Shown here: one piece after another, positions 40,032 to 64,000 of the stretch
Layout of the letters: every line of letters starts with the position of its first letter
Numbering within the stretch: the stretch's first letter is position 1
DNA from: Euglena gracilis
Taxonomy: Eukaryota
Direction of reading: 5' to 3'
Assembly (NCBI GenBank): GCA_039621445.1
Contig: CP154954.1
Location: forward strand, 2,418,001-2,482,000
Length of the DNA: 64,000 bases
Made by a program: the position numbers and the translations under genes
The notes under the pieces: generated by a model
What the model was told of the DNA's origin: nothing
What the model saw: the letters and a program-made list of their open reading frames with translations, nothing else
The model's database searches: none

Positions 40032-42524
40032 CACAAACGCTGTGCGGCGTGTTGTACTGGCGGGCGGTGCTGCCCCCGGAGGGGGACCAGGGATTTCTTG
40101 GAGTTGGAACCCACGGGAGAGGGCACTCTACCCTGGGGGTCCAGTGGGGGTTTTCCTCCATTTTTGGCGCGAAAAGCCAGAAATTTTTTTGAGCCGACCC
40201 AAAATTGACCCCCGAAATTGGGTCCCTCGGACCACTCTCCAGGGGGGGGGGGACTCTAGGTGGGTGGGTGGGTGGGGGGCAGGGGTTTTTTTTAGCCTTG
40301 GACCCTCGCCTGTGGGGTCCCAGAGGGGGGTGGGATACACTTTTTGGCACCGAAGGAAATTTTTTGAAAAGGGTGCTATTTTTTGGCATTTTTCGCGATT
40401 TTTTTGGGTTGTGGGTTGGGTCCCGGGACCCCCCCCCCAGGCCAGAATTTTATGACTTTTTTTTGACTTGCATCATTTTTATGATTTTTTGTTTTTGTTG
40501 TTGTTTTTCCGGTCGCCCAGAAATTGTTCTAAAGAAACGTTTTTTTTTTGAGGGTCTTTGTCATGACTCATTCTGTTTCACTTGTGGTTTCTCCTCGGGG
40601 GGCTGAGGGGCCCCGCCAACACCGTCGCCCCTGAAGGGCCACCTGCGGCCCTCCCTCAGGCTGTACCTCTCCCCCCCCCCCCGGAGCCCCTCACGTTCAC
40701 CGTTCTGTGGCAGCACAACCGCAACCCAACGAGTCAATGGCCAATTTCCCCCCCAAAACTCCCCAAGGACCCCTCCCCCCCCCCAGGACCCCCCAAGACA
40801 GGGTCCTGGGGAGAACTGGCCATGTGTGACTGCAACACAGCGACGTCGTTGGAAACGGCCCAGGTGGGTGCCAGACCAAGCTGCTTTTTGACTCAGAGTC
40901 ACCCTGGGCCATGGGAGTGGTGGGTGGGTCCAGGGCTGACCCTCCCCCGGGAGGTTGGTGGTCCCGCGCCCCGGCGTCTGGGTATGGGTCGAGCCGACGT
41001 ATTTTGTCGCTTCGTGTCAAAAACTACGAGGAAATGGGTTGCCAGCCAAAAAAAGTATCACATTGGTTTTTTTACTGCTGATTTTTATAAATTTTATGTC
41101 TTTTTGTTTGACTTGCATCATTTTTATGATTTTTTGTTTTTGTTGTTGTTTTTCCGGTCGCCCAGAAATTGTTCTAAAGAAACGTTTTTTTTTTGAGGGT
41201 CTTTGTCATGACTCATTCTGTTTCACTTGTGGTTTCTCCTCGGGGGCTGAGAGGCCCGCCAACACCGTCGCCCCGCTGCCCGCCCTGAAGGGCCACCTGC
41301 GGCCCTCCCTCAGGCTGTACCTCTCCCCCCCCCCCGGAGCCCCTCACGTTCACCGTTCTGTGGCAGCACAACCGCAACCCAACGAGTCAATGGCCAAATT
41401 CCCCCCCAAAACTCCCCAAGGACCCCTCGCCCCGCCAGGACACCCAAGACAGGGTCCTGGGGAGAACTGGCCATGTGTGACTGCAACACAGCGACGTCGT
41501 TGGAAACGGCCCAGGTGGGTGCCAGACCAAGCTGCTTTTTGACTCAGAGTCACCCTGGGCCATGGGAGTGGTGGGTGGGTCCAGGGCTGACCCTCCCCCG
41601 GGAGGTTGGTGGTCCCGCGCCCCGGGGTCTGGGTATGGGTCGAGCCGACGTATTTTGTCGCTTCGTGTCAAAAACTACGAGGAAATGGGTTGCCAGCCAA
41701 AAAAAGTATCACATTGGTTTTTTACTGCTGATTTTTATGAATTTTATGAATTTCTTTGACTTGCATCATTTTTTCGATTTTTTGTTTTTGTTGTTGATTT
41801 TCCGGTCGCCCAGAAAGTGTTCTTCAGAATTGAGGGTCTTTGTCATGACTCATTCTGTTTCACTTGTGGTTTCTCCTCGGGGGGCTGAGGGGCCCCGCAA
41901 ACACCGTCGCCCCGCTGCCCGCCCTGAAGGGCCACCTGCGGCCCTCTCTCAGGCTGTTCCTCTCCCCCCCCCGGAGCCCCTCACGTTCACCGTTCTGTGG
42001 CAGCACAACCATCTGCTGCAACGCGGCGACCCGCAGAACCCCGGCCATGGCCTTTTGGGTTGGTGGCGAGGAGCGGTGTTAAGTACGTGGGCCCAGGGGA
42101 TGGTGAGTGTCCAGAGGGTCAAAGGAAGTGACTGAATGCATTTGGGACAGCTGAATGGAGGTTTAAAAAAAATCCCCCCGCATACTCAGGATGTGATTTC
42201 ACAGGTTAATTCATCTCGTTTTCGAAATTTTTTTTGTGAAGAAAAAATATTTTTTTGACATAATCGTCATTCTTTGCACCCTTCCTGACAATCTAATTTC
42301 TCACACAATTTCCAGTTTATTATTTTTTTTATTTTTTTGCAAGGGTGGATTTGTCTTCTCCCATTCGCCTCCCTCCCCCCGGAACGTGGTTGCTGTTTTT
42401 TTTTTTTTGAGGACGGACACACACTGGGGGGGGGGACTCCATGGGGGGTGCTTTGGCCAAGCAGTGCCAAAATGTCCAACTTTAGGTGCAAAGTCTGTCA
42501 TTCCACCGTTTAGGTGGCAGGTGC

Positions 42525-45500: not shown

Positions 45501-45530
45501 TGGGGATGGCTTCGGTGCAACGTGGAAACG
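42525..45530 (+). repeat. Three tandem copies of a ~1001-bp segment (single copy at ~18650-19615 and ~35067-36035)
   Basis: Junction GTTTGGTTTG|CCCCCCGGACTGAATTTTG at ~43526 and ~44527. ORF-track pair 43939/44940. Confidence 0.92.
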
Positions 45531-48500
45531 TTTGGTTTGGAGAATGCCTTTGGATGGCCAGATTTTCGGGGGGCCCCTGGGGGTGCCACGCCGGGGCTGG
45601 CTGGCCGGTCCCCCCCCCCCCCAGCAATTGGCCAAGGGTCATGCGACAATCTCCTGGGCGGGAAGGTTTGACACAACCTGGACAAAAATAATGATGATGG
45701 GGAAACAAAAATAAGGAAAATACATGATGGGGAATCGTCGAGCAGTTGCAAGGCTAAGCCTTCTCAACAACGCCAGAAGTAGGGTGCCATTGAACGGGCC
45801 TTGTGTGTGTGCATGTGTGCGTGTGTTTGTGTGGGGGGGTGTCTTTATGTTCACAAGCACATGTATCCCATCTGTCAAGTAGAATGTGTTAGTGCATTTG
45901 TGTGTGTTCGTGCAAAATAGTCATTTTTTTTGCCCACAGGCCATCACGGCTGTCCCCCCGAAGGACCAGGGCGGTGGCAAAGGCCTGAGGGGTAGGTTGG
46001 GGTTTCCTCTAGCAACTGTTCATCGTGTCCATGCATTTTGTGTACACTCCGTTTCTTTTTAATCTTGATGATAAATATGTTCTGTAAATATCCCACAGCA
46101 ATGTCGTCACAAGTTGCTTGTACCTCACTCGATTTATATTCTCTTTTTTTAATTTGCATTTTTTGAAACTTGATGAAAATTTCATTAGCAAACGACAAAG
46201 TCAGTCAAGTTGGAGTTTTTTCGGCTTTTGAAAGAAGACTCTCTTTGCTTTTTCCTTGTCTCGCCTTTCCAAAATACCCCCCCCCCCAAAAGTGGGCACC
46301 CCCCACCGGTCTTTAAAGAACTCCTGCGCATGGGGCGAGTTGCCAGCGCTGATTATGGGCATCCCCCCCAAGCCCTCTTAAGGAAATTACCTTACGGGAA
46401 AAATGAACGGGTGCGAACCCAACACAGGTTGCTTGTCGGGGCGAAGCGGGGCCACTTTGCTCCAGGGTGCTTTTTTTTTCAATCGCCAACTTTCTTTCCT
46501 TTCTGTTCCCGGCGACCTGCCTGACGGATTTCAAAATTTTTACTTTCATCGCAGCAGGAAAGGAAGCTGCCATCGACCAGAAATCATCTTAATTTTGGGG
46601 TATAGGGAGGGCAATGGCGAAGCGAAGACGCCATCCCTAAGAAAAGCAACCGCTCGGCCGAAATGGGGGTTTTGTGAGCCAGCCTTTTTGTGTCGAAGAT
46701 GGCCCACGCCCGCTTGGGCGGTGCCGCGGCCCCGAGAAGGCTCACCAGGGCCGTTCATGTTTTCTAGAGGGCCGGGAAGCCGAAATACAGGCTGTTTTTT
46801 TTTTGGAACCGCCGCGAACTAAAACGCCCTGCCGACCGGACCTTCCCAGGCGCCACGCGGCTCACAAGTCCGACACATTCAAAGCCGGGCGAGCAGTACT
46901 GAAAACACCACTCACTAGGGCTTTCCAGAGTGTCGGCCAACCAAAATGGTGTACATTTTTGGACTCGGCGCCCTCAAAAACCCCCTGCTGCAACCTGTCG
47001 GCGATTAACCGGACCTTGGGGTGTTCTCTCATTGGGAAGGAGGAGGACAAAAAAGTGGTGGATCTCCAGCACTCAAAAACTCAAGTTTCTTTGTGAGTTG
47101 GCAGGCCGGAAAACACACCCCACATAGGTTTTTGGGGGTGCTGAGTCCAAAAAAGTGGGTCATTTTGACTCACTTTTTGTTTTGAGAAACTCGATTTTTT
47201 CCAAATGCGACACATCTTGGCGATTTGCGCCCGAAAATTTGAGGGGGAAACCAGGAAAAACGTCCAGAAAATCACATTTAGGTGTGAGCTGAAAATCTGC
47301 TGGGGAAAAGTGGAGGCCACTCTCCATTTTCTGGGCCGCAAAACTCAGAAACAGTGTCAAAAAAACGTGGTTGCGTGAATTTTGCTGCGCTTTTGGGGGA
47401 AAGTGCACAAATATACTTTGTAGAAAGAGTCGCGGTAAAAAAATAATAAAAAGTGACTTTGCCAACTGAAAATTTCTGGGTTGCCCAACAGTTGGCACGT
47501 CAAAGTGCACCAAACACAGGTTTTTTAGGGTGCTGAATTTAAAAAAGTGGGTCATTTCACTTAATTTTTTGTTTTGAGAAATTGGATTTTTCCCAATTGA
47601 GGGACATCTTGGCAATTGTGGCCACGAATTTTGATGGAAAAGTGTGGAAAACCGTTGGAAAATAGCTGATGCACCGTTGGTTGAAAAAGTTTGGAGGAAA
47701 TTTGTGGACAACCCCCCGTTTTTTGGGTCGGCGAACTCAGAAAAGCTGTCAGAAAACAGTGGTTGCCGACTTTTCCTTGAGCATTGTGCAAAAATTGCAC
47801 AATTTTCTGGGGGAACGTTTTCAAATTTTGTTCAAAATCGACCACCAAACCTGGGGTTTTAAAGGTTCTGAAGGCAAAAATTTGGGTATTTGTGCTAAAT
47901 TGTTTGTTCTGAAAACATGCTTTCTCCAAAAATCATGCTTTCTCCAAAATGAGGAACGTCATCCCTGAAAACACACACACAAAAAAGAGGACGATAACCA
48001 CTGCGTCAGGGTTGCTGAAAAATATGGAAATTCCACGACCATTTTTCGGTCTCTGAACCTAAAACGATTGCCAGAAGATGTGGTTTTACAATTTCGCTGG
48101 TGAATTTTCCGTCAAGTTTACTGACGTTTTTTTTTTTGAAAACAATATCTGCTTGTGGCACGAAGTATGCAAAGAAAAACAAGAGTGAACACAATGTGAT
48201 TGTGCAATTATTTCAACAACTGACCGCACTTTAACTTCGCATTCACCTGGAGAAATGATTGCTCTCGAAACAGAAAGCCTTCCAAATGATAATTTCACCA
48301 ATTTCAGACCCCCAGGGGTGAATCCTTCCGAGTCTTGGTCCCCAAGGACCAAGATTCAGAAGGATTAGCCCACACGTCTGATTTTCGGTGAACAATGAAA
48401 GAGCAAACAAAAGACGTTGCAGTGGAGGAACATACACATCATGATCCTGACAAAATTCTCTATCCATCAAGCCAACTTTCAGATCACGCATCCCTTTGGA

Positions 48501-49181
48501 TCAGGACTTTGGTGGGGTGGTGTGGGTGGCCGGAGCGCACGCACACCCAAAGTAGCGGAAATCTCCGCTACGGTCTGACGTCATCTTTTGTGCGTTTCAT
48601 TCCTCAGGCTCCCCTGTTTGCATGCATTCAAAATGGGCAGCAACAGCCTGAGCTCAAGTCCAAGTGTCAGGGCCCCAAAGTGCTTCTCACACATCATATA
48701 CAGTCATTCATTCATTCTCATGCGTGCGTGCGTGCTCAGGTGCCAACTTTTTGGCACCTGAGCAATGGCCCCAAAATGGTTCGAAATGGCCGCTGCTTCC
48801 CCCTGACGATTTTGTTGAGGATGTTCATATTGTTTTGTTTGGACAAGACACATTTCAGAAAAAAATTAGAAGCTTTTTTTTTTCTGGGCAGGCGTTTGGC
48901 AAATACCCACCAGTCTGCAAAAGTGGTCACCCCACCCTTGAGCCCCCCCCCCCCAAAGCAGAAGGGAGGAATGGAATCCCCGAACCCTGGGCGGGCGGCG
49001 GGACCCCCCACAGCAGTGCTGATTTGGCAGGTGGAAAGTTTTCTTTCCGCGCCGAAGAACCTTCTCCTTGCTCGTTTCCATGGTGGGTGGGAGAGGTCTG
49101 ATCTGACCCCCCCCACCCGAATGGTGGGGGGGTCCACCACCCCTACCCAGGCTGTGCACTAAATGAAAGTCTGGCGCGTAG

Positions 49182-49323
49182 TCTGGCGGCGGTGCCCCGG
49201 GGGCATGGGCTGTCCCGAAAGACGCTGTTCCTGATCCAATTCATGGCCCGGCAGTGCGCCACGGTGAAGTTCGTCGCCAAGGTGGACGACGACACGTACG
49301 TCCACGTCCCGCGCCTCGCCCTT
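49182..49323 (+). pseudogene. Second copy of the GT31 exon
   Basis: Same sequence as 39672-39813 with one A-to-T amino-acid change (QCATVK). Confidence 0.8.
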
Positions 49324-50962
49324 GCCCAGGGGCTTGCTCGCCGGAAGGGGGGCGAGATGTCTCCCTCGGGATGACACGCCCTGCCCACCGTGCTGCTTTT
49401 TTGGCAAGGTTGGAACTTGCGACCCCCGGGTTTGGGGGGGGGGGGGGTCGCGTTGCGCAGCATACCCCAAGATCCTGAGGCGTCGGGTCCCGAAACGGCC
49501 ATCTTTAAAGAGAAATCCACCGAGATCGAGGCCCAGCTGGGACCCACAAACGCTGTGCGGCGTGTTGTACTGGCGGGCGGTGCTGCCCCCGGAGGGGGAC
49601 CAGGGATTTCTTGGAGTTGGAACCCACGGGAGAGGGCACTCTACCCTGGGGGTCCAGTGGGGGTTTTCCTCCATTTTTGGCGCGAAAAGCCAGAAATTTT
49701 TTTGAGCCGACCCAAAATTGACCCCCGAAATTGGGTCCCTCGGACCACTCTCCAGGGGGGGGGGACTCTAGGTGGGTGGGTGGGTGGGGGGCAGGGGTTT
49801 TTTTTAGCCTTGGACCCTCGCCTGTGGGGTCCCAGAGGGGGGTGGGATACACTTTTTGGCACCGAAGGAAATTTTTTGAAAAGGGTGCTATTTTTTGGCA
49901 TTTTTCGCGATTTTTTTGGGTTGTGGGTTGGGTCCCGGGACCCCCCCCCAGGCCAGAATTTTATGACTTTTTTTTTGACTTGCATCATTTTTATGATTTT
50001 TTGTTTTTGTTGTTGTTTTTCCGGTCGCCCAGAAATTGTTCTAAAGAAACGTTTTTTTTTTGAGGGTCTTTGTCATGACTCATTCTGTTTCACTTGTGGT
50101 TTCTCCTCGGGGGGCTGAGGGGCCCCGCCAACACCGTCGCCCCTGAAGGGCCACCTGCGGCCCTCCCTCAGGCTGTACCTCTCCCCCCCCCCCCGGAGCC
50201 CCTCACGTTCACCGTTCTGTGGCAGCACAACCGCAACCCAACGAGTCAATGGCCAATTTCCCCCCCAAAACTCCCCAAGGACCCCTCCCCCCCCCAGGAC
50301 CCCCCAAGACAGGGTCCTGGGGAGAACTGGCCATGTGTGACTGCAACACAGCGACGTCGTTGGAAACGGCCCAGGTGGGTGCCAGACCAAGCTGCTTTTT
50401 GACTCAGAGTCACCCTGGGCCATGGGAGTGGTGGGTGGGTCCAGGGCTGACCCTCCCCCGGGAGGTTGGTGGTCCCGCGCCCCGGCGTCTGGGTATGGGT
50501 CGAGCCGACGTATTTTGTCGCTTCGTGTCAAAAACTACGAGGAAATGGGTTGCCAGCCAAAAAAAGTATCACATTGGTTTTTTACTGCTGATTTTTATGA
50601 ATTTTATGACTTTTTTTTTGACTTGCATCATTTTTATGATTTTTTGTTTTTGTTGTTGTTTTTCCGGTCGCCCAGAAATTGTTCTAAAGAAACGTTTTTT
50701 TTTTGAGGGTCTTTGTCATGACTCATTCTGTTTCACTTGTGGTTTCTCCTCGGGGGGCTGAGGGGTCCCGCCAACACCGTCGCCCCGCTGCCCGCCCTGA
50801 AGGGCCACCTGCGGCCCTCCCTCAGGCTGTACCTCTCCCCCCCCCCCGGAGCCCCTCACGTTCACCGTTCTGTGGCAGCTGCCGCGGACAACTGATGCCC
50901 CCAAATCGAGGGGCGTGGCAGTTTCCCGGCAGGCTCCCCCACGCTGACCTGTGGAGTGCCCC

Positions 50963-51251
50963 CAGGCTTGTGCTTCGTCGGGTGCCTACCCCACGGGGGG
51001 GGTGCTTGGGGCATGGCACCCTATAGCACCCATCCGACCCCCCCGGGGGGGGGTAGGGTTTTGGGGGTGCCTGCCCATAGCAGGCACCCCCCTCCAACCC
51101 CGGCGCAAAGGTGCCGGGGGCCCGGAAAAGGCCATTTTCAATGAAAATTTCCTGGGCCCCCCAGACCCCCCCGGGGCGTGTACCTGCTAAGGGCAGGCAC
51201 CCAAGAGCACCCACCCCCCCTCCCCCCCCCCAGTCGGTAAGCACAAGCCTG
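50963..51251. mobile_element. TIR element / putative non-conventional intron 50960-51256
   Basis: 13-bp perfect TIR CAGGCTTGTGCTT / AAGCACAAGCCTG. Flanks AGTGCCCC and TGCGCCAC (5/8 match). Confidence 0.78.
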
Positions 51252-51551
51252 TGCGCCACCCGCGACCCCAACGTTCGTCATCACAGGTCCCTCGCGGCCC
51301 ATGCGCACTCCTTCTTTGAGGGTTGACCCGCTCCCCTTCGGATCCGCGCAGCGCCGCGGTCCCAAGAAGCGGGGTCTCGTCTTTTGGTGCTCAGCGACCC
51401 GCGGGGGCATGTCCGGCCCCCTCCCAGTGCCTTCGGGCTCCAGCGCACCCCCTGGACCTGAAGTTAGCGTGGGATTGGTGGGGTATTGATCCCGGCGCAT
51501 GGCCGCCAGAGCCCCGGGAGCGGGCTCTGGCGGCCAGATCCCCGGGAGGCT

Positions 51552-51734
51552 ATTTATATTTATTTATATTTATTACTGGTGTTGTTGTCATTATTATTGT
51601 GATTATTATTATTTTTATTATTGCTATTGCTATTGTTATAGTTATTGTTATTGTTATTGTTATTGTTATTGTTATTGTTATTGTTATTGTTATTGTTATT
51701 TTTGTTATTTATTTATTCATTTGTTTGTTTGTTT

Positions 51735-51770
<36 letters not shown>

Positions 51771-51798
51771 TATTTTTTATATTTATATTTTTTTATTT
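51552..51798. repeat. Compound microsatellite (ATT)n, (ATTGTT)n, (TTTA)n
   Basis: Directly visible. Confidence 0.95.
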
Positions 51799-54700
51799 CA
51801 ATGATCGGTGACCCCCCCCCCAGGGTGTGGGGTCGAGCTGACTGGGACTCCTGGGCAACCGTCAATCAAATGCCAGGGGGGCATTTGATTGCTCCATTCA
51901 GAACCATTATGGCCATTGCCAAGTCTTTTGGATCAATGGGGGCTATTTTGGTCATTTTTTGGCCACTGCTGGCCACTACCCTTTTTTGGCAAATCAACTG
52001 TTATTTTGGTCATTTGAGCCGTTTTCCATTGATAATCATCGTAATTTTCCGGAAACGGCTGAAATGGCCGAAAAAAAGTTGTTAAACCTGGTCTAAATGG
52101 CCCCAAAATGGTTCGAAATGGTCGAAAATGGTCCGAGGTTGATTGTTGTTTGTTATCGCATGGAATGGCCCCAAAGTGGCCCAAAATGGCTTGAAATGGA
52201 TTGCCAGTTGGTAACCTAAACATGTCCAAATATGGCCCAGTTCCAGAAAAATCGCATATTTTCCGCACATTTTTCCGTATTTAGCGTGTATTCCCGCATG
52301 ACCCCCCAAATGACTTTGCAATGCCCTAAAGCTTTGCGTGCCCGAAGAACTTCGCTGGGGGGAAGGCCGAAAAAGGTCGGTCCAAATCACATTGCCCGCC
52401 CCTTTCAATGAAAAAGACACGAAAAATGATGCATCTTTTTTTGGGAAATCAGGACGTGGTCAGCGCAAAAAAAAAATGCCATAAAATTTGCCACACTGCT
52501 CTGTATTTGATGAACAGAAGCATTAAATTATGTTACAGATAGATACAAATGAACAGAATGTGACAACAAATTTCTTTTGGGAAATGTGATCAATCGGTCT
52601 ATCAATGGTTTTGGGTGCTTCCAAATAACTTTGCAGGGGGTCGGGGCCAAAAATATCCATCCACTAATTTTTGAAAAGAGTTATTTGGGGGGGGTTATTT
52701 TTGCGCATATTTGGGGGGGCTTTTAGTGCACATCCCTCCCCAGAGGGTTGCTCGCAATTTTTTTCACCTCCATGTGTTTATTTCCAGACTTACAAACCTA
52801 GACCATGTTAAGCCAAGGTTGGAACGTTTTCAACAAAAAATGATGGAAATTGATGGAGATTGAATTTGCATGTTTCTTTAAGAACACAACAGAAGATGAA
52901 GTGTTCCATTTTTTCCAAAAAACAGGTTTTTTTTATTTTGTTTTAAACGAGCTGCCAGCTATGCCAGAAACACATACCAAGAAAGGTCAGCAGACATGTT
53001 AACAAACAACCCCCCACAGCACAGGGCAGCATCCCTCCTGGCTTTAATCCCCTAAAACTTGTACACCGTGTGTCGTGTGGATCTCAGGCAGGTTCAACGT
53101 CCATGGATTCGAAACATGACCATTTTCAAAGGAAAATTGGCGGGTCATCAGGCACTGGGGTCCAAAACTGACCCCCGGGGGGGGGGTGCCTGCTATATGC
53201 AGCCACCCCATAGCACCTCGCCTCCCCCAGGGTTGTTCAAAAAAACAGCCTGCACACAGGAAAAAAATAAATCTGGAAACCCAGCTGGTTTTTTCGCACC
53301 CCTTCTCCGTTGTCCGTGGTGCCAACCGCTTTGCTTGCCCCATCCCATCGTCCCCGCAGGAATGCTGGCCTCTCTCGCACTATGGTTTTGCTTCCTCTCC
53401 GTGGCGATGAGCAAGTCCAAGACGCGGCCCTCCTCCACCCAGCCTTGGGGACAGAGCATGTGTGGCGGGATGGAGCAGCATGGCGCTGGAGGCGAGGAGC
53501 GGCCGGTTGGAATTGAAAGGGACACCCACGCCTGAGCAGACCTGTTCGTAGGACTGTGTTGTTTGCTGCCGCCCACAAAGCATGGGGGTGTTTTAGACTG
53601 CGGTGGAATGGCTGGCAGAGCAGGAAGAATTGGGAGTGCCTTTGCCAGATGGCTCCAAGCACCTTCGATGACGCAAGGCGATGCGAGGGCGATACCGGAG
53701 TTTTGGAGGGCAAAGGTGGGGCTCTGAAGCAGGGCAGGGTTTTTTTGGCCATTGTCTTACAGCTTCAGCCGTTTTGGCTGCATTTGTCCAATTTTTGGCC
53801 ACTTTTGGTCACTTTGGCCGTTGGTTGTTTTTGGCCATATTTCGGCCACTTTAAGCCACTTTTGACTGTTTTTTTTTTGCTGTTGTTTTTTGCCCATTTT
53901 TTTTGGTCATCTTTTACCCATTTGACCATTTTTTTGCACAATTGTGAGCCGCTTTTTGTGCTTTTGGTCATTTTACAGTCAGGACAAAAATGACAGGAAA
54001 CAAAAATGATGGGGGGGTAATGAAGACAAAAAAAAAGTGGGAAATTTTCTATTTTGATGATGGGAAAATTCAACTTTCCGCAGAAAATGTTGATAACTTT
54101 TCCCTCTTATAATGAAAGTTTTTGAGCAAAAAAGCAAAGTTTCAAAAAAAGTCAAAATGGTCTTCTGGGTGTCTTTTTTGTGATTTTTTATGAGAAACAG
54201 ACCCAAAATCGACCATATGTTATATCTCCCCGTCTTTTTGTGTGTTAAATTTGACCACCTTGAACGTGGCCCCTTTAAAGGGGCATTGAAAGGGTTCGGG
54301 GGGCAAAAATGGCGGGGGAAAATATGGAAGAAATGGGTGTTTTCCCATCATTTTTGTTCCCCGTCATTTTTGTCCGGACAAGAAACTCATTTTCTGCTTT
54401 TGGCCACTTTTGACTGGACACCCACCCACCTTTGGAGGCCATCCAAGGCTGGATGGGAATACCTGGCCGCACGAAGGGCGGATCGTTTATTTGGATTTGG
54501 GACAGGGTGCATGTGTGCAGGCGCTCGGGGTTCAGATTCATGATGTCTATTTGGGGCAAGGATGCAACAGGGACACGTTTGATCAGGTGCGTGGCAGGTG
54601 CACACTCATCTAAGCTTGTGCACGGAAGTTTCGGAGAATTTGACAGGGGGCCAAACTGGGCCAGAAGCGAAGTTGGGCACTGGCCATGAACAGACAAGTT

Positions 54701-55753
54701 AGTTCATGGAAGGGAGGGAGAGGGTCCCAAGGTCCCAAAAAGTTCCAAAAACAGCATTTCTTCCTGAACTGTACCGAGATATGGGGGGGGGAGGGTCCTG
54801 GGGTCCCAACTGTGCTGCCAACCCCTTCTTGTTTTCGCCGTTCTGTGGAGTGCATGAAGCAAACACTTTTTTCAGTGTCCCATGGACAATGGGAAATGAG
54901 GGATTGAATTTATTTTGAGACCCTTTTTGCGCACAAATGATTGAAATTACACTCCTTTGCACAATTACCCAAATAACTTTTTCGTTTTTGTTTGCGCAGT
55001 TATGCAAGTGAATACAGATAATTAAACCTCACTGGAACCTTTCCTGACGTATTTTTTATTGCATTTAAAATGGATGCATGATTGGGCGGTCTTCTGTCAT
55101 GTTCCCTGAAATGTATTTTCAACCCTCTTACTCATCTTTCCGTCAGCCATTGGACAGGAATCAGATTTCGATGTCTTACAGCCTGACCCAAAAAAATAGA
55201 GTCTTCGCACCCCCTTCTTCAAAGACCTCATTCGCATGCCTTGAAATGCTGCACAAAAGAGCACTTGTGAACCAGGGCAGTTCTCAAGGGACAGAAACGC
55301 CTTTTTTTCTCTTCAGCACCCCCCCCCTTGCGGACCGCACATTAGGCCAAAGGGACAGCCAAAGGCCGATCTGGTGATTGAATGGGGGCAAAATGAAAAT
55401 TCCAAAACCACAGTTTTGACGTTCTGGATGGATGGGCGATGGGGGTCAAGAGGCCCAAGGCATTCCCCCCCCCCAGATTCGACCCATTTTTGCCAAATAT
55501 GCCATTTGCGGCCTTCTTTTTCCCCTGGATTTTGCATTTAATGGGACCGGGTTTTTTTTTTCAAATGTGGTTTTGGGGGGGGGCCTGATGTGAACCCCCC
55601 CAAAATCGGTTCTGCAAAGAGTGTGTGTGGGAACTGGACGGCTGGAGGTATTGCTCCCTTTCCTGTTTCCTGTGGCCAGTGACGGCCTCGTGGGATCGGA
55701 ACGCCCCGGGTTGGGATGGGAGGTGACGCTCGACCCCCAAGGCTGTCCCCCAG

Positions 55754-56931
55754 GTCGGAGGGCACCCCCCTCAGGCTTCTTTTTAAAAAAGTTCGCCCCC
55801 CCCGGGGGGGGTGCTGTGGGTTGTGACGGGGATGAGCAACCCCAAACCCGGGGGGGGGTCGGGTTTTGGGATGGGTGTGGGTACCTCCGCCCCTTGAGGA
55901 GCGGGGCGCTTGGCCCCGCTCCTCCTTACATACAAACTTGGCCCCCCCCTTAAGGTTGGTTTTTGGCCTTTAATTTTAGCGCATGGCCGCCAAAATTCTT
56001 AACATGCAAACTTGGCCCCCGTAAGGTTGGCCCCCGGCCTCACCTTCAATCATGGCCCAGGCCAAGCGCCCGGGGGGGAGGTAGCGCTAACCCCCCCCAA
56101 ATTAAGACACCCCCCCGATTTTCAGCAAAAATCCAAAAAAAACGACCCCCACAACAGTAAGACCCCCCTCGGGATTCTTTGGGGAAAATCCAAAATAGAA
56201 CCCCCCCCCAAACTGTGAAATTGTCCCTGAAATGGTGATTTTTTTTACGTTTTTTTCCATTTTGCCTATCATGTATGTGTCAAAATTGGCATTTTGCAGA
56301 CGTTTTTTTGCTCATTGCCAAAAATCGCCCCAAAACCCCCTTTAGGATTTTCAACAACAAACCCAAAAAGGACACCTGGGGTCTTATTATTTCAAAAATA
56401 AAATATTATTTATTAATATTAATGTTGATATTAATATTAATATTAACATTAATATTAATAATTATATATTATATTAATAATATATTAAAATATATATAAT
56501 ATAATATAGTATAATACAATATAATATAATACAATGTAATATAACATAATATAATATTATATTATATTATATTATATTATATATAATAATATAATATATA
56601 ATATAATATAATATAATATATAATATAATATAATATCTCTATCTAATATATCTAATATATACTATAATATAAATATAATATCTCTATTATATATCTCTCT
56701 CTCCTCTCTCTCCCCTCTCTTCCTATTATATTATTCCTTACAGGGGTGCGCCAGCAATGGGGAGGCACCCCGTAGCACAAGCCACCCACCTCCTCCCCAG
56801 GGTTATTGAGAAGAAGCCTGACCCCCCTGCAGCGGCTTTTCGCTCACAGCAAAGTCACCCGCGAGCGCCATTTCCTGTGGCTGAATGTGCAGAACTGGAA
56901 CCAGGCTGTATTGGCGAATCCTGATGTCTGA
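55754..56931 (+). CDS. Coding fragment of unknown product interrupted by the 55772-56820 element
   Basis: CCCCCAG| acceptor at 55753. The empty site reads SEGTPLQRLFAHSKVTRERHFLWLNVQNWNQAVLANPDV then TGA. Confidence 0.5.
55772..56820. mobile_element. Non-autonomous TIR element (hAT-like) with perfect 8-bp TSD and an internal AT-rich microsatellite; putative intron 55769-56825
   Basis: TIR CAGGCTTCTT / AAGAAGCCTG. TSD ACCCCCCT at 55764-55771 and 56821-56828. Confidence 0.85.
56395..56735. repeat. AT-rich low-complexity tract: (ATATA)n, (ATTAT)n, then CT-rich
   Basis: Directly visible. Confidence 0.95.
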
Positions 56932-58028
56932 CACCCTGCCATCAACCCCCCCCCCGAGAAAATGTTATTCACCCATGTGGGGCTGGAAGAGAGTAACCCC
57001 AGCCCCAGAAACATTGCCCCTCTTCCCCCCGTAAACACCGCTAAGGTTTTGTCCTCATGGGAACCTGTCTTCCCCCCCCACCCCCCCCCCCCCCCCCCCC
57101 CCCCCCTAAGGTGTCCTCATGGGAACCTGTCTCTTCTTCCAGCCATTTCTGAACTCCCACATGCATTAGATTTTTGATAATGCTGAGCTCTCTGAGTTCT
57201 CACATTAATTGCTCCTCTTATGCCCCACCCCACACAGCCCACAAAAAAGGTATTTCTGGTAAGTTTTTTTTAAAGAAAAATTGTGTATTTGCAAAAAGAT
57301 GGTGGATTTGCAAAAAAACAATGGTGGATTTCTTTGCCAAAGAGTGATTTTATTAAAATTATTTTTTTAAAAAAATCCAAAAATCAGGGAAAATTTTTTT
57401 GCATATTCTTCAAAAACAACAGAAATGCTCTGTGATTGAGTTGTTCCTGTCTTTCCTGCTGGAAAAGCTCGGGGTGGAGGGGGGCATCATGACACGAGGT
57501 AGGAAGCAGGTCTCTGAGGACTCTGAGGACAGGTCAGCGACCACAGGACCAGAAGGCAATTTCCCAGAGGTCCGTCAGAGGAAAAGCATTTGGCATCGAG
57601 AGACATTTGTGACCCTCCCCCTGCTGAGAAAAAATTCCGAAAACCTTGGTTCTTCAACAACTCACGAAACATGCTTTTTCAAGAAAAATATCAAGCAATT
57701 AATAGGAGACAAGTTAGCAGGTGCAAAACGTACAACCATCAAGACCATCAAAGGCAAGTCTATCAAGGCCTCAACATACGAATTAAATATTGGGTTATAA
57801 GATGGCTGGTATCAGTCTTTTGGGAGGGAAGAAGAGGACAAGGATCATGTTTCGTCAGTATGAGAGGCCGGCGCATTTTCAGGGTGATAACCTGGGCAAC
57901 ACAGAGGTGGGTGTAGAACAGGGTCAGGTGGTGCCTCCAAAAATTTATTTGCGCTCCCCCAGAGATGTGAGAATTATCGACATCATCAATGTGCTTTTGT
58001 TTACCAAATGGTCATATTCCATTTACCT

Positions 58029-58078
58029 GGTGTGTGGGTGTGGGTGGGTGGGTGGGTGGGTGGGTGGTGTTGTGTGTG

Positions 58079-58138
<60 letters not shown>

Positions 58139-58284
58139 GTGTGTGTGTGTGTGTTGTGTGTGTGGGTGGGTGGGTGTAGGTGGGTGTGGGTGTTGTGGGT
58201 GTGGGTGTGTTGTGTGTGTTGTGTGATGTGTGTTGTGTGTGTTGTGTGTGGGTGGGTGGTTGGGTGGGTGGGTAGGTGGGTGTG
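58029..58284. repeat. (GT)n / (GGGT)n microsatellite
   Basis: Directly visible. Confidence 0.97.
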
Positions 58285-58393
58285 CAGTGTCATTATTTCC
58301 TTCTAACATTCACCTCTAACCACTTAAAGGGTTTAATTGTTGGAACACACATTTTGAGTCATTTTTGCTCATTTCGGAAGAGGAAAGGGTTCA

Positions 58394-59340
58394 AGGCGGC
58401 CTGCCACAAGTGTCACAGTCCGGTTCCGGCACGCCGGGTTCATGTCCCGGCCATGCCATTGCTTAACACCTGTCCCCCCCCCCGGGGGGGTGACTGACTG
58501 GTTTTTTGGCCCAGAGCCCCCCCCCCCGGGGGGTGGGATGGGCCCGAAAATGAAAAAGTGGCTGGCCTGGCGCCGAAGGCGCTGGAAATTTTTTAGATTT
58601 TTTTGAGATTTTTTTGGCAAATTTTCATTGCCTCCAGGAGAGTGGCCGATCCACCCCCCCCCCCCGGGGGGTAAAGTGACTGACCGGTTTTTTTCGGAAA
58701 AAGTGACTGACTCGTTTTTTCAGAGTGGAAAGTGACCTCCCCCTCCCCCCCCCCGGGTCGCTAAGCAATGGCATGGTCCCGGCTGACCGTCGCGATGGAG
58801 ATGACACAAGAGCTGTACGGCGTGTTGTACTGGCGGGCGGTGCTGCCCCCGGAGGGGGACCAGGGATTTCTTGGAGTTGGAACCCACGGGGGAGGGCACT
58901 CTACCCTGGGGGTCCAGTGGGGGGTTTTCCTCCATTTTTGGCGCGAAGAGCCAGAAATTTTTTTTGAGCCGACCCAAAATTGACTTCCGAAGTTGGGTCC
59001 CTCGGACCACTCTCCAGGGGGGGGGGGACTCTAGGTGGGTGGGTGGGTGGGGGGCAGGGGCTTTGTTTAGCCTTGGACACTTTTTGGCGCCGAAGGCGCT
59101 GAAATTTTTTGAAAAGGGTGCTATTTTTTGGCATTTTTCGCGATTTTTTTTGGGTTGTGGGTTGGGTCCCGAGACCCCCCCCCCCCAGGCCAGGGGGTGG
59201 GTGGGGGGACCCCCCTCCTCCCAGTCTGAAAAACCCCTAGTGGGGGATTTCCGGTGTTTCAAAAAAAAATCCCTGGCGGGGACTACCCGGTGTTCGGCCA
59301 CGACTTTGCCCCGGCTCTGCCCCACGACTGCGGCCAGGTC
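58394..59340 (+). CDS. Three-exon coding fragment of unknown product (58394-58448, 58781-58857, 59281-59340); partial copy 23881-24443
   Basis: After removing two TIR elements plus 8 nt each, the frame reads RRPATSVTVRFRHAGFMSRLTVAMEMTQELYGVLYWRAVLPPEGDYPVFGHDFAPALPHDCGQV. GC3-rich. The outer boundaries are uncertain. Confidence 0.6.
58452..58775. mobile_element. Non-autonomous TIR element (hAT-like MITE) with perfect 8-bp TSD; putative non-conventional intron 58449-58780
   Basis: 14-bp perfect TIR CATGCCATTGCTTA (58452-58465) / TAAGCAATGGCATG (58762-58775). TSD GTCCCGGC at 58444-58451 and 58776-58783. Confidence 0.9.
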
Positions 59341-62300
59341 CCCTGTTTGCTGCCACCCTCGGCCCATCCCCCTCCCGCCGCATGCCTTTTGACAGCCACG
59401 GGCTTGAATCGGCTGGCAGCCTTTTGTCAGTCAAAATGTGGGCGTGTTCCCCTCCGGGGCTCCTGCCTCGCCCCCGTGTTGGCGTACTGTGGACGGTCCT
59501 GGCTGTCTGTTGGGGGGCCGCATTTGTTTGTGGTATTCGGATCTGTTCTGTGGCCATTTCCGTTTTTAGCTTTTGGTTTGGTTGCTCAATCCCCCCCGGC
59601 TGGTTTTTTTTGGTTTTTTTTCCAAAAAATAATAATTGTGTTTTTTTAATTCTGAAAAAGCAGCAAAGAAACTCCAAAAAGCAAAAGGGAAAAATAGCCA
59701 GGGGCCCGGCAACGTGATTGCCGCCGATGGCCGTTTTTCCCCCTGCGTTTTCTTTCACATTTGGAGTCAATTTTTTATGGATCAAACCTCTGGTTGGTGT
59801 GTATCCACAGAAAAGATTATGTACCGGTGTGCTCGGGGGCTCGACCATAGCTAGTCCAACTTTTTTTTATTTGGATTATCTGCAGTCGAGTGGAATTTCT
59901 AGTGGACCCTCTGTGGGGAGGGGGTCCACTAGCAGGGCTGGCTAGTGGTAATTTTTTTTCCTGGTGACTGACGCAAAACACAAGAATAAAAGTTTTTTGA
60001 CCCCCCCAAACACCATTTTCAGCCACTTTCGGGATTTTTCGGGACAAAATCAGCCAAAAACAAATTAAAAAACACCATGGCACGCAGTTCCAGAGTTTGG
60101 GGGGGGGGGGCTGAACCCTCCCCCCAGGGAGGGGGTCTAGATGGTGGCTTTTTCCCAGTGACTTGCTAATAAGGCCAATAGTCTAGCTGGCCAGTAACAT
60201 GACTGGCAAACCCCCCTGTGGGATATAAGTTGGGGTTTTAAATCAAGGAGTTGTTGGTCAAAACACGACCCACCCAAGAACGACCCCAACGCCCCCAAAA
60301 TGGCAGTTTTTGGCAAAATCTGTTTAAAGAATAACGGCTTTTCAATGATGGGCAGTCACAGGGATAAGCAAAAAAAATCAGTTTTGGGGATTTGCGGCCG
60401 AAAAAAAAAAAGTCCAGATGTCTTTCAATTTTCTTCCAAGTCATAAGTCAGGGTTTGCCAGATCTTAACCCGGAGAGTGTATTTGTGGGAGGCTTGTGGA
60501 CCTCAAAGTATATCCCACCCCCCACCCCTGGGGAGCTCGGCCGGACCCACCCTCCCCCCCCCCGGGTCCAAGACAAAAAAAAACCCTGTGCAGGTCACAG
60601 GTAGTTTTTTTCCCACTACCTGGCCCTGCTGGTGGACCACTGGGGGGATTCACCAGTAGGATTTCCACTGGCCAGATTTTGAACTGGCCGTAGTCGAGCG
60701 AGCCCCCCCCCCCCCTCAGGGGCACTGTGAACCCTGAAAACAGAAACCTGACGGGGAGGTTGGAGGTTGGCCCCAGATCCCCCCGGGGCCTTCCAAGTTA
60801 AACAGAAACCTGGCCCTGGCTCGTTCTGTTTTGCCCAGGGGGAAAGCGTTGAAGGGCCAGGCAAGGCTTGTTTGGGCTGGGAAGAACAAGGCCGAGCGTA
60901 GATATGTAAAACCCGGCGTTTTTCCGGGGTTCATTTAATCAGTGTGTATTTCCCCCAAGTTTCTTCACGGAACTGTTTTTTTACTCGGACAGTATGTGCT
61001 TGGCTTGTCGGGTCTGTTGGTGTACAGGGGCAACAAAAAAGGGTGATGAAAGGTGGCAGGCTTGACCAATTTTCTCCCTTTGTTGTTGTTGTTGTTGCAC
61101 CCCCCCCCCCGAGAGCAAAAAATCCATCACCGTCCAGGTGCCCTTTGGCGGCTGGACTGGACAGGAAACCAAATTCGTCAATGGACCGGAAGGGGAAAAA
61201 ATAGCTGGAAACAGGCTTCTGCGTAAGAACCCTGGGTTTTTGGGTCCCCCAGGACCCCCCCCCCCAATTTCGACCCGTCCGAGAGTGCTGACACCGAGGC
61301 CGTCGGTTCCTCGGCGTCGCCCGGCGCTCATGCCACAAAATTTCCACCGGGTTTCTTTTAATTCAGAAGACCCCCCTAAGCGGGGTCCAGGCAAGACCCC
61401 TGGGTTCGATCTGGACCAACCCCCCACCTGCCCTCCCGGGAGGGGGGGGGCAAATTCTCTTGAGATATGCCCTGTTTTGGGTCACAAATTGCAGAAGGGC
61501 AAGAAATGTCTACTATTTTTGATTTATTTTGGTCGAAGATGAGGGCGTTTTTTCTCATTGGTTAGCGGGTCCTGGGGGGGTTCTGGGGGGGTCCCGCAAC
61601 TTTTTGGCAAAAATTTTGCAGCACAAGATGAGGTTATTTTGAAGACTGGGGGGTCCGGGGGGGCGGTAGCCCCCCCCCCCCCGGCAGCGGGCGCCGAAGG
61701 CGCCCGGAACTCCACGGTCAGTGGGTTATGTGGGTACCGCCCCCCCCCCCGGTAGGTCCTGGGGGTCCTGGGGGGGGGGAACTGGCCATGACTCTTGGTT
61801 AGGCAATAAAAGGTGGTTTTGAGTGACTGATTCATCAACCGAGGTCACAAAGAAGGAATCAATGCCTTGTCTTCTTGAGTTCCAGGCTCAGTTGCCTTCG
61901 ACACTCATCCCCAGAAAGCACCCGAAATCCAGGCACCTGAAATTATGATTAAATGTTAATATAACCTTCTCGTGTGCATTTTCCCCAAACCGGCCAATCA
62001 TGCCATTTTTGGCGCTTGTTAGGGCAAAAAGAGTGAAAAATGCAAAAAAAGTTTTCAGCTAGAACCGCCAGAAGGAAAAACGCTTGAGTGCTGGTTACCC
62101 CCCCCCCCCCCGGGTCGGTCAGGACCCCCTTGTCCAGCCAATCAGCAACTTTTTTCCAACCAGCAGCTTTTTTCCCAGCCCCGGCCCCTCCCCCCCCCCC
62201 CGCCAACGAGTTTTATTTGTTTCCAGCTGCCCAAAGGGTGGCTGGACAGTAACAGATTTTTCGCTTTGGGGGGGGGGCAAAAATGGGCCAAACCCGGGCA

Positions 62301-64000
62301 AAAAATGTGTCGGAAGAGGGCAATGATATTTTGCATAATTGGCAGTTTTTTTGGACATTTTTTGCAGTTTCGAGTTTTTGGTGCCTGGTTCAACCCGGGT
62401 CCGGCCCAGTTCCAGCCCGGGACCCGGGGGGGGGGGGTCAGCCAGCAACCTTTTTCCAGGCCAGCCCAAGTTTTCCAGCCTCTGCGATGGACCCCCTTGA
62501 TCCAAATGATGACCTAAAATGGCAACGGAGTGTGAGATTGCCAAAAATGTTTTTAAATAAGATAGGAAGTGTTTGTTGTTGCTTCATTTCAGATTTTGCA
62601 CTCCTCCTTTGACCATGAGTGCTTGCGGATCGGAGTTCTGTTTCAACCTTTTGGAGGAAATCGATGTGCATGCAGTTCAACGCTGATTGGTGGAAATTCA
62701 AAACCAGATTTTTGATTGGGAAAAAAATGGCCCCCAAAAATATGTTTCCATTGTTTCCATTTCTGTCAGCCCCTAAAAGGACTAAAATGGCCAACACCGC
62801 GTTAAATGACCTAAACCCCCCTCCAAATAGCCTGGCGGGGCCCTTGCTCCTGGCGGGGGCCGAATAACCTGGCGGGGGGCAAAAAAAGATGGTTCCGGTA
62901 ACTTGGCACCCCCCTTTTTAGGCAAATTCCTTCACAGCGCTGAAAAAAAAAAGAGAGCCCAAATAGCCTGGCATGGGGGAGGGGCAGGGCCAAAAGTTGG
63001 TTCCAATAACCTGGCACCCCGCCAGGGCATTGGGGGGGGGGGGTCACAATGACCTCAAATGGCCCGAAATGATCCGCCCATACGGGGCCAAAAAGTCATC
63101 TTCGGATTTTTAGGTTTTTTTACGGCATTTGGGCCACTTTAGGAAGTGCCGATGCCCGTGGCCCATCCCGTGCGGCGGCAGCTGGTGGCGCAGTACGCCC
63201 GGCACCCGGACTTCGACGTGGCCGACATCTTCGTGGGCAACCACAAGCGGCCTGGCCAGTGCTGCGGGGTTCGCCTCCGCGGGGTGGGGGTGGCGCACAA
63301 CACCGCAGAGCACACCGCGCAGAAGCAAACTCACTTCGGGCCATAACACCGAAATCCGAATTGGAAGTTCCAGCTGTTTGTTTGGGCTGTTTAGGGGGTC
63401 AAGGCTTGAAGTCAAGGAGTTTTTGGCCCAAATCCAACTCCCCCAAAATGACCCTGAAACCAAATGGGCAATTTTTAGCAAAGTACAGCATTTTTGATGT
63501 TGGTCAGTCACATGGAAATGGCCAAAAATAGTTTGGGGGGGGGTTTCAACCAAAAAAAATCGTCCCCAGCGGCTTTCATTTTTCTTCGCTGGGGGTTTAT
63601 AAATCAAGCTTTGGTTGGTCATCATGGGGGGGGGGGTTATGAGTGGGGGGGGGTATGACAGTGGGGGGATTATAACTGAAGAGGCAGTTCCCCCCCCATT
63701 TATAAACCTCCCCCCTTCGGCTGACCAACCAAACCAGATCTCATAAACCCGGGGGGTTTGTGGGTTGGGGGGTTCCGTCCATCCTTTTGAACGGAACGGG
63801 GGACAATAGCTGTGTGATTGAGAACCACCCCAAGGGCCAAGCGTTGAGGTAATGCCGAAGGGGTGGAGGAACCATGAGCGGCAGTGGAAGCAGCACCAGT
63901 GGTATGGGATGGGGTCCAATTCGGCTTAAGCGACACCCTGGTCAGGATTCCAAATTTTCCGGGGACCAAAGAAAAAAAGCCTGTTTTGCAATTGAAGATG
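58642..64000 (+). repeat. Large segmental duplication, copy C (more diverged, lacks a ~3.2 kb block, has one inverted segment)
   Basis: 58642-61265 matches 23738-26370, then jumps to the equivalent of ~12932 (CAATTTCGACC). Many substitutions relative to A and B. Confidence 0.92.
58861..59275. mobile_element. TIR element / putative non-conventional intron 58858-59280 (second copy 23961-24378; right-truncated copies at ~40088 and ~49601)
   Basis: TIR CAGGGATTT / AAATCCCTG. Flanks AGGGGGAC and GCGGGGAC (6/8 match). Confidence 0.8.

Follow-up and report, generated by a model that had tools for sequence, protein, structure and literature searches.

Transposon-type insertions with 8-bp target-site duplications in Euglena gracilis nuclear DNA and their possible relation to nonconventional introns

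Nonconventional introns of euglenids follow an experimentally defined rule, N3-CDG...CH'G-N5-6 followed by R, in which the donor spacer is strictly 3 nt and the acceptor spacer has an optimum of 5 nt (Nomura et al., 2025; PMC12501133). A MITE-like origin of these introns has been proposed earlier (PMC12501133; Milanowski et al., 2014, PMC3935182), and the locus described here raises the question of whether the asymmetric spacers could be the trace of an 8-bp target-site duplication. A sequence-only reading of a 64,000-nt stretch of DNA, hereafter the window, had picked out four elements (E1 to E4, Table 1) as hAT-like MITEs, each placed in a GC3-rich coding island and removable as an intron. 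The four elements, their CA...TG ends and their flanking matches of 5/8, 8/8, 8/8 and 6/8 were all reproduced. We consider it likely that positions 50955-59290 hold non-autonomous DNA-transposon-type insertions in repeat-rich, segmentally duplicated E. gracilis-like nuclear DNA that is silent in the RNA sampled, and from their geometry we infer a link to introns.

Table 1. Coordinates of the elements, their flanks and related features in the window
Feature	Coordinates	Strand	Description
E1	50963-51251	.	289 bp; TIR 13/13; begins CAGGCTT, closes AAGCCTG
E1 flanks	50955-50962 and 51252-51259		8-mers, 5/8 identical
E2	55772-56820	.	1049 bp; perfect 10-bp TIR CAGGCTTCTT; begins CAGGCTT
E2 flanks	55764-55771 and 56821-56828		ACCCCCCT; 8/8, perfect 8-bp target-site duplication
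E2 internal AT-rich microsatellite	56385-56693
E3	58452-58775	.	324 bp; perfect 14-bp TIR CATGCCATTGCTTA; begins CATGCC
E3 flanks	58444-58451 and 58776-58783		GTCCCGGC; 8/8, perfect 8-bp target-site duplication
Segment between E3 and E4	58776-58860	+	85 bp; exon-like GC periodicity
E4	58861-59275	.	415 bp; perfect 9-bp TIR CAGGGATTT; begins CAGGGA
E4 flanks	58853-58860 and 59276-59283		8-mers, 6/8 identical
Paralogous copy	23738-24378	.	Right part of E3 (to 23875), same 8-mer, 85-bp segment, full E4 (23961-24378)
Right-end-only relative of the E1/E2 family	53172-53251	.	Ends ...CAGCCTG; from alignment
Lone galactosyltransferase (PF01762) exon	39694-39813	+	95% identity to residues 120-159 of an E. 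gracilis transcript protein
Second copy of the galactosyltransferase exon	49204-49323		97.5% identity to E. gracilis transcript protein

Candidates were perfect inverted repeats 9 bp or longer that lay 60-3000 bp apart, collected with their ends trimmed by 0-3 nt and with low-complexity arms dropped. The flanks of the resulting 1263 candidates were compared with six sets of shifted flanks and with the expectation from the window's own 8-mer spectrum. Flanks identical at 8/8 positions were found for two of the 1263, E2 and E3, versus none in each of the six controls; from the 8-mer spectrum about 0.2 would be expected by chance (Poisson P ~0.02). Both repeats are perfect at length 8 only, as lengths of 2-7 and 9-12 were imperfect. 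The E2 duplication (ACCCCCCT) is C-rich and occurs 16 times within the window, and its individual significance is therefore weaker. E2 and E3 are clearly genuine insertions of transposon type, bounded by inverted repeats and flanked by an 8-bp duplication.

An origin of such flanking repeats by double-strand-break repair or by microhomology-mediated insertion of hairpin-forming DNA, with no transposase involved, was proposed by Milanowski et al. for the eight-nucleotide repeat of a new gapC intron (Milanowski et al., 2016; PMC4770533), and E2 and E3 are indeed composites of abundant palindromic C-run/G-run modules. We nevertheless regard a repair origin as improbable, because two independent insertions are both flanked by exactly 8 bp, set against perfect 10- and 14-bp TIRs with CA...TG ends. 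An exact 8 bp is what a staggered cut by a transposase leaves behind, whereas repair footprints would differ in length. Against transposition counts that E1, E2 and E3 each occur at full length only once in the 64-kb window, and that neither an empty-site allele nor an empty-site paralogue was seen for any of the three. The interior of E3 consists of motifs of very high genome abundance, with a summed DNA contig word depth of 390,000-543,000 versus approximately 600-700 on unique stretches, values that reflect abundance and not copy number. Likeness to E3 in 69 DNA contigs starts no further left than 58474, 22 nt in from the left end, indicating that the abundant repeat is the interior of E3 and not the whole element.

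The imperfect flanks of E1 and E4 behaved differently from those of E2 and E3. Matches of 5/8 were at background (36 observed, 32-48 in the controls), as were matches of 6/8 (11 observed, 3-18 in the controls), and the proposed decayed duplications of E1 and E4 are thus indistinguishable from chance. E1 and E4 could be no transposon insertions at all but short inverted repeats that face each other by chance in GC-rich, repetitive sequence, with an old intron or spacer of the ordinary kind as a further option for E4, and we give this explanation appreciable but minority weight. In addition to the background frequency of their flanks, it draws on E4, which is low-copy, moves with its flanks and has a predicted minimum-energy RNA fold that leaves its terminal repeat unpaired. 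The termini are paired in the folds of E1 (13 bp), E2 and E3, and perfect terminal repeats of 9-14 bp provide for pairing just inside the CAG/CTG positions in all four elements. A chance origin is at odds with the 13/13 TIR of E1 and with the terminus and subterminal module that E1 has in common with the clear insertion E2. It is also at odds with the 58 CAG...CTG pairs that have a repeat of at least 9 bp, since four of these rows have flanks identical at 6/8 or more positions versus 0-2 in the controls, although only two of the four (E2 and E4) are independent events. The row 11117-11281 is a foldback, and its own flanks form a palindrome.

The four elements had been described as having different TIRs, which is correct except for E1 and E2. 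These two have the same first 7 nt and a right-subterminal module of approximately 80 nt, which alignment also detected at 53172-53251, where no matching 8-bp duplication was found in the flanks. Judged from the shared terminus and module, E1 is probably an older relative of E2.

E4 has a different history. The element and its flanks are common to four paralogous copies, the others lying at 23961-24378, 40088-40445 and 49601-49956. The copy given in Table 1 (23738-24378) is 91.5% identical over 141 bp of the E3 part and 91% over 426 bp of E4, and DNA depth over 58873-59063 within E4 is about 6 times the unique level. Because the flanks travel with E4 in the paralogues, E4 is older than the segmental duplications and no fresh insertion. 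It is an old low-copy segment with inverted-repeat bounds that was already in place when the local duplications occurred.

The 85-bp segment between E3 and E4 has GC contents of 0.68/0.43/0.93 by codon position, compared with 0.68/0.35/0.90 for the only verified exon, and by its composition it is possibly a relic exon. Between two of its paralogous copies (A and D), all three differences fall at second codon positions and are non-synonymous. Of the claim that each element sits in a GC3-rich coding island, the composition of this one segment is what stood, and the flanks of none of the elements had a protein match. GC periodicity was weak to the right of E2 (0.62/0.38/0.72) and was not clear in either flank of E1, to the left of E2 or E3, or to the right of E4.

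When the window's 30 longest open frames were scanned against Pfam, a single one had a match, a weak one to PF01762. A profile built from seven Euglena galactosyltransferases matched at 39694-39822 and 49204-49335 only, with no match beside E1, E2, E3 or E4. The open frame to the right of E4 had no relative in two protein libraries, and the conceptual peptide obtained by splicing out E4 showed no similarity to the galactosyltransferase family (shuffle p of at least 0.06 for all seven proteins). The lone galactosyltransferase exon, whose 95-97.5% identity to the transcript protein marks the DNA as E. gracilis-like, does bear on splicing. Its alignment to the transcript protein ends at 39813 and is followed by gcc-CAG from 39814, which makes 39814, as the earlier reading had held, a credible nonconventional-type 5' intron boundary on the strength of this alignment.

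We then asked how the elements relate to the splicing code. A cut from 3 nt before CAG to 5 nt after CTG removes the element plus exactly 8 nt, and this 3+5 geometry is that of the published N3-CAG...CTG-N5 rule (PMC12501133). The arithmetic advanced for the locus is thus correct, and the equation of 3+5 with an 8-bp duplication was not found in print in the literature searched. CAG...CTG ends are present on three of the four elements (E1, E2 and E4). E4 conforms to the whole published cis-code (N3-CAG...CTG-N5, then G), and E1 conforms to it with an N6 spacer only. E2 carries the motif, but whether its spacer is taken as N5 or as N6, the exon would begin with C; in the published assay, a C at the acceptor exon start led to an unstable transcript (PMC12501133). 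E3, with CAT...ATG, is missing the G/C of the CAG/CTG motif and lies outside the CDG/CH'G code. The two youngest elements therefore fit the code worst, which speaks against the idea that such insertions are neutral from birth. The suggested ageing series was not supported either: the 5/8 and 6/8 flanks are at chance level, E4 and its flanks are common to the paralogues, and the 233-bp indel at 17910-18142 (cited earlier as 17914) is a misfit, having its CAG 7 nt inside and not 3.

In its full form, the proposal places all four elements in the exons of a gene that is transcribed and has them spliced out as nonconventional introns, with junctions 50959/51257, 55768/56826, 58448/58781 and 58857/59281, so that the pre-insertion mRNA is restored. 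RNA from three runs was mapped to the stretch 58300-64000, the region of E3 and E4, with E1 and E2 lying outside it. RNA depth was 0-3, and 343 of 359 reads overlapped the stretch only partly, on abundant submotifs. Neither 58448/58781 nor 58857/59281 was among the 15 joints listed of 228, and removal by splicing is thus not supported at the locus. The exact arithmetic, the agreement of E4 with the whole cis-code and of E1 with an N6 spacer (PMC12501133), and the exon-like periodicity of the 85-bp segment speak for the full proposal. Set against them are the flanks without protein homology, the three of three non-synonymous paralogue differences, the CAT/ATG ends of E3 and the C that E2 leaves at the exon start. 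A weak further point is that, with the E3 site restored exactly to its pre-insertion state, the V-H-V-P-like frame upstream and the GC3-rich frame downstream do not share a register. Taken as a whole, we consider the full proposal highly unlikely.

The assignment to hAT was considered separately. Elements of this superfamily make 8-bp duplications and have short terminal inverted repeats, and their first five terminal bases are usually pyrimidine-A-purine-any-G. Non-autonomous hAT elements such as Ds are like the present elements in both duplication and TIR, and the terminus of E4 (CAGGG) fits the pattern, but those of E1 and E2 (CAGGC) and of E3 (CATGC) deviate at position 3 or 5. We know of no hAT transposase from Euglena. 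No report of hAT elements in Euglena was found in the literature searched, and no transposase domain, including the hAT and IS1595 types, was detected in the 30 longest open frames of the window, 64 kb being small for judging this. A different superfamily that makes 8-bp duplications, Merlin or P, could have generated the elements, in which case the argument from the 8 bp would survive. The Merlin families F1 and F2 with 8-bp duplications are documented in E. gracilis, and apart from Merlin no transposons with 8-bp duplications were found documented for this organism in the literature searched (PMC8101967). Merlin elements have duplications of 8-9 bp, ends that begin with 5'-GG and an IS1595-type DDE transposase (PMC8101967). 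The duplication length would fit, but all four elements begin with CA and not GG, at odds with Merlin. That the elements belong to Merlin or P we hold to be rather unlikely, given these ends and a scan of 30 frames without a transposase domain, from a stretch too short for judgement; the documented Merlin families, the lack of reported hAT elements and a hAT pattern that fits E4 only weigh in its favor.

In the reading that we prefer, E2 and E3 are cut-and-paste insertions that have TIRs and have kept their 8-bp target-site duplication; E1 is probably an older relative of E2, and E4 is a low-copy segment that predates the segmental duplications. The CAG...CTG termini of E1, E2 and E4 are the ends recognised by Euglena nonconventional splicing, and the length of an 8-bp duplication is that of its 3- and 5-nt spacers together. 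On both counts, elements of the E2/E1/E4 type are plausible present-day members of the pool from which nonconventional introns arose. Such an element, transcribed as part of an exon and with a purine as position 6 of the duplication, would be predicted to be excised together with one copy of the duplication. We suggest, tentatively, that the asymmetric 3-/5-nt spacer rule may be the footprint of a DNA-transposon lineage with 8-bp duplications and CAG...CTG ends, of which nonconventional introns would be aged copies and E2-like elements living members. If so, the excision machinery would take out the element with exactly one duplication copy, insertions into exons would be harmless from the start provided that a purine occupies duplication position 6, the intronic half of the duplication would have decayed with age in the hundreds of thousands of nonconventional introns, and E2 (CAGGCT...AGCCTG, perfect 8-bp duplication) would exemplify a living member of the lineage.

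Several known systems resemble these elements. Like E1, E2 and E4, euglenid nonconventional introns have CAG...CTG at the ends of a terminal stem, and their 3+5-nt spacers equal an 8-nt duplication (PMC12501133; PMC3935182). They are defined from transcripts, whereas E1 to E4 are known from genomic sequence, and E3 with its CAT...ATG falls beyond the code that was tested. Neither main text uses the terms "target site duplication", TSD or hAT, and a maize Ds-derived intron is cited in one of them (PMC3935182). Merlin F1 and F2 occur in the same organism with inverted-repeat ends and 8-bp duplications as found here, but they have GG ends and encode a transposase (PMC8101967), whereas E1 to E4 start with CA and have no coding capacity. 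The E. agilis strain ACOI 323 has recently gained a nonconventional intron, intron 4 of gapC, whose junctions carry direct repeats of eight nucleotides (Milanowski et al., 2016; PMC4770533). In length, the repeat agrees with the E2 and E3 duplications and with what the 3+5 model predicts for a new intron; the intron lies in an expressed gene and was read there as a footprint of double-strand-break repair. A recent review treats CAG/CTG as inverted-repeat ends and the junction repeats as duplication-like, and describes introners, DNA transposons turned spliceosomal introns that draw a splice site from the duplication (Mob DNA, 2024; PMC11282704). Like the elements here, introners are non-autonomous and have TIRs and a duplication, and the message is restored when the element is removed with some or all of the duplication. 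Introners rely on the spliceosome and GY-AG sites, and their duplications differ in length (3 nt in Micromonas; PMC11282704), whereas the route proposed here would be the non-spliceosomal, stem-dependent pathway of Euglena.

The sequence-only reading had proposed four elements with inverted-repeat ends (E1–E4), interpreted as hAT-like MITEs that may act as introns. We measured ends and flanks directly on a reading of 50800-59500, and all four were confirmed exactly as described, both in their ends and in their flanking 8-mers (the 8 nt to the left compared with the 8 nt to the right; see table). CA at the start and TG at the end are found in 4/4 elements; E1, E2 and E4 have CAG at the start and CTG at the end, and E3 has CAT and ATG. 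The flank identity of E2 and E3 is perfect at length 8 only, and their 8-bp duplicated sequences are ACCCCCCT and GTCCCGGC, respectively.

Features of the window, with terminal inverted repeats and matching positions of the flanking 8-mers
Feature	Positions	Strand	Terminal inverted repeat	Flanking 8-mers	Remark
E1	50963-51251		13/13 bp	5/8	
E2	55772-56820		10 bp	8/8	
E3	58452-58775		14 bp	8/8	
E4	58861-59275		9 bp	6/8	
E1/E2 right-subterminal module, further occurrence	53172-53251				as right end
E4 with its flanks, further copy	23961-24378				
E4, truncated copies	40088-40445; 49601-49956				
E3 right part with its 8-mer	23738-23883				
27-nt internal motif	58568-58594 (E3); 59085-59110 (E4)				96% identity
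Foldback, first copy	11117-11281		23 bp, perfect, starts CAG	6/8	(CA)n run inside
Foldback, second copy	27656-27822		23 bp, perfect, starts CAG		(CA)n run inside
Lone galactosyltransferase (PF01762) exon, two copies	39694-39813; 49204-49323	+			weak Pfam match first
658-residue open frame	5236-7212	+			66% GC island
~16.6-kb unit	7935-21005; 24558-37419				98% identity
~9.5-kb unit	35863-41367; 45366-50879				98% identity
Further duplication	23753-26370; 58651-61264				95.6% identity
~650-bp unit, many repeats	16351-17910; 32783-34341; 40445-42010; 49956-50879				
233-bp segment, two paralogues	17910-18142; 34342-34573				
1072-bp stretch	21005-22078				21 bp in the other paralogue (37419-37441)
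Long microsatellites	58029-58284; 51580-51798; 56385-56693				(GT)n with GGTGTGTG variants, TGTTAT/TTAT arrays, AT-rich array inside E2

We then searched the whole window for perfect inverted repeats, 9 bp or longer and spaced by 60-3000 bp; after trimming of the ends by 0-3 nt and exclusion of low-complexity arms, 1263 candidates were obtained. Flanks matching at 8/8 positions were found for two of these, exactly E2 and E3, and for zero candidates in any of the six shifted-flank controls; from the 8-mer spectrum of the window itself, ~0.2 such cases would be expected (Poisson P ~0.02). Because their flanks exceed both controls and expectation, E2 and E3 are sound transposon-type insertions. 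The 5/8 and 6/8 classes are background, with 36 candidates observed versus 32-48 in the controls for the former and 11 versus 3-18 for the latter, and the flanks of E1 and E4, which had been described as decayed duplications, are therefore statistically weightless on their own. Among the 58 pairs that have CAG...CTG ends and a repeat no shorter than 9 bp, flanks of at least 6/8 occur in four rows versus 0-2 in the controls, namely E2, E4 (twice, via its paralogue) and the first copy of a long foldback. The foldback was rejected as a duplication since its flanks continue the palindrome. In a scan for Merlin-like ends starting with GG, palindromes of G-runs and C-runs swamped the output and no reading was possible. 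We regard E1 as probably a real element; E4 is old, and its status as an element is ambiguous.

E1 and E2 have their first 7 nt in common, as well as a right-subterminal module of ~80 nt that also occurs at one other place in the window; because they share this module, all three are members of a single family. For E1, E2 and E3, no further full copy was found within the window. E4 recurs together with its flanks and in truncated form, and the right part of E3 recurs with its 8-mer; given these paralogous copies, E4 and E3 are older than the local segmental duplications. Summed word depth in DNA contigs (run X1), which is not equivalent to copy number, was ~600-700 for unique stretches, ~4100 for the left half of E4, and 390,000-543,000 for the interior of E3. 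In 69 DNA contigs the likeness to E3 starts only at 58474, 22 nt inside the left end. The abundant part is the modular interior of E3; the whole element is not demonstrably so. A 27-nt internal motif is common to E3 and E4, and each of E1-E3 contains palindromes in which a C-run precedes a G-run, modules that are extremely abundant in the DNA contigs.

The published code for nonconventional splicing is N3-CDG...CH'G-N5-6 followed by a purine, with a donor spacer of strictly 3 nt and an acceptor spacer that performs best at 5 nt; pairing inside the CAG/CTG motif is needed, single substitutions in CAG or CTG lead to loss of splicing, and an exon that starts with C gives an unstable transcript (Nomura et al., 2025, PMC12501133). 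The arithmetic at the core of the proposal is correct, in that cuts 3 nt before CAG and 5 nt after CTG remove the element plus one 8-nt duplication. E4 fits the code in full and E1 fits with a 6-nt spacer only. E2 has the motif, and its exon would start with C under either spacer; E3, with CAT/ATG, falls outside the tested code. Thus, the two youngest insertions, E2 and E3, are the worst candidates by the published code, which goes against the suggestion that such insertions are neutral from birth. In the proposed model, position 6 of the duplication becomes the first exon base downstream of the intron, and neutrality would therefore depend on the target site.

The elements had also been placed inside coding islands, for which we found no support: exon-like composition is restricted to the 85-bp segment 58776-58860, and no protein match was found for the flanks. 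GC by codon position is 0.68/0.43/0.93 in this segment, compared to 0.68/0.35/0.90 in the verified galactosyltransferase exon. Copies A and D of the segment differ at three positions, each a second codon position, a pattern as would be expected of a dead gene. Open frames across the excised sites do not exceed the length expected by chance for GC-rich DNA. For the open frame on the right side of E4, no relative was found among longer proteins, and a search of 1.84 billion representative proteins (E up to 0.001) returned 0 matches. When the conceptual peptide across E4 was compared with 7 galactosyltransferase-family proteins, it showed similarity to none of them (shuffle p 0.06 or higher). Galactosyltransferase exons in the E3 and E4 flanks were considered and rejected, as the family profile finds the lone exon only and the E4-spliced peptide is dissimilar.

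We mapped RNA from three runs (X21, X22, and X24; ~5-6% of each was read), together with the DNA contigs of X1, to the stretch 58300-64000, which was chosen to be free of the long microsatellites and which covers E3 and E4, not E1 and E2. RNA depth in these samples was 0-3, and 343 of the 359 mapped RNA reads lay only partly on the stretch, at abundant submotifs. Among the 15 of 228 joints listed, at this depth, none provided RNA support for 58448/58781 (E3) or 58857/59281 (E4), nor was there an empty-site joint for either element. Judged by the sampled RNA, this locus is silent or almost silent. At a depth of 0-3, splicing of E3 and E4 is therefore neither shown nor refuted, and a role of the elements as introns at this locus is not supported.

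Segmentally duplicated units form a mosaic in the window, over 7935-50879 and 58651-63600. Scans of the full window against Rfam and for tRNAs returned nothing, and the ~650-bp unit is therefore not of the SL-RNA/5S type. The 1072-bp stretch present in one paralogue has no obvious inverted repeat or duplication at its visible ends. A Pfam scan of 30 long open frames resulted in one match, the frame of the galactosyltransferase exon. Its copies share 95% and 97.5% identity with residues 120-159 of a protein listed in EukProt as an E. gracilis transcript; the organism is therefore E. gracilis itself or one of its very close relatives. When a profile of seven Euglena galactosyltransferases was compared with the six-frame translation at E up to 10, only the lone exon was recovered. 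Because no other exon is detectable in the 64 kb, it is a gene fragment carried by the duplications. The 658-residue open frame is proline-rich at its start and includes an acidic stretch and a long part that resembles a coiled coil; it matched no Pfam family and may represent either a genuine gene or a frame carried by a repeat.

Two further sites had been suggested as possible aged introns that no longer carry a duplication. The exon that ends at 39813 is followed by gcc-CAG, which makes 39814 a credible nonconventional 5' boundary without a duplication. The same reading of 17914 is unsupported, since in the 233-bp segment there the CAG lies 7 nt in from the boundary. This segment is cleanly missing in a third paralogue (42010); its boundary slides by one base, without a flanking repeat, and the difference may reflect a deletion, an insertion or intron loss. 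With this CAG misplaced and the flanks of E1 and E4 at background, the proposed ageing series of duplications finds no support.

To our knowledge, no source element for nonconventional introns has been shown since a MITE-like origin was proposed in 2013. The authors of that proposal noted that transposable elements had yet to be identified in the genomes of euglenids (PMC3935182), and the idea was put forward again in 2025 in a study in which nonconventional introns account for 71.8% of E. agilis introns (PMC12501133). CAG/CTG are described as the inverted-repeat ends in a 2024 review, which calls the repeats at the junctions duplication-like (PMC11282704). One recent gain is documented, gapC intron 4 of a single E. 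agilis strain, with eight-nucleotide direct repeats that its authors ascribe to double-strand-break repair (PMC4770533). Junction repeats render 69.1% of nonconventional introns 'slidable' (PMC12501133); one-base slides often arise by chance. Neither the equation of 3+5 with an 8-bp duplication nor a hAT assignment of these introns was found in the main texts of the literature searched, which included PMC12621601 and PMC11170887 besides the papers cited above. The hypothesis sharpens an idea already in print and is consistent with two independent findings from the literature, namely the 3/5 spacers and the 8-nt repeat in the new gapC intron.

These observations bear on how Euglena removes nonconventional introns and where they arose. 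The window offers at least one concrete candidate source element; by virtue of its CAG...CTG ends and intact 8-bp duplication, E2 is the most useful object in it and the kind of source element that the MITE hypothesis has lacked. The relation 3+5=8 is a sharp numerical prediction that is testable on existing data sets. If true, it would account for the asymmetric splicing code as well as the slidable borders of most nonconventional introns, and would provide a mechanism of intron gain with no cost at birth; if it fails, the elements would be ordinary miniature transposons in junk DNA. The usual hAT terminal pattern is fitted by E4 alone, and the case for a hAT label is weak. The only E. gracilis transposons with 8-bp duplications that we found documented are two Merlin families (PMC8101967). 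Their duplications match those of E2 and E3 in length, but Merlin ends are described as starting with GG whereas those of E1-E4 start with CA.
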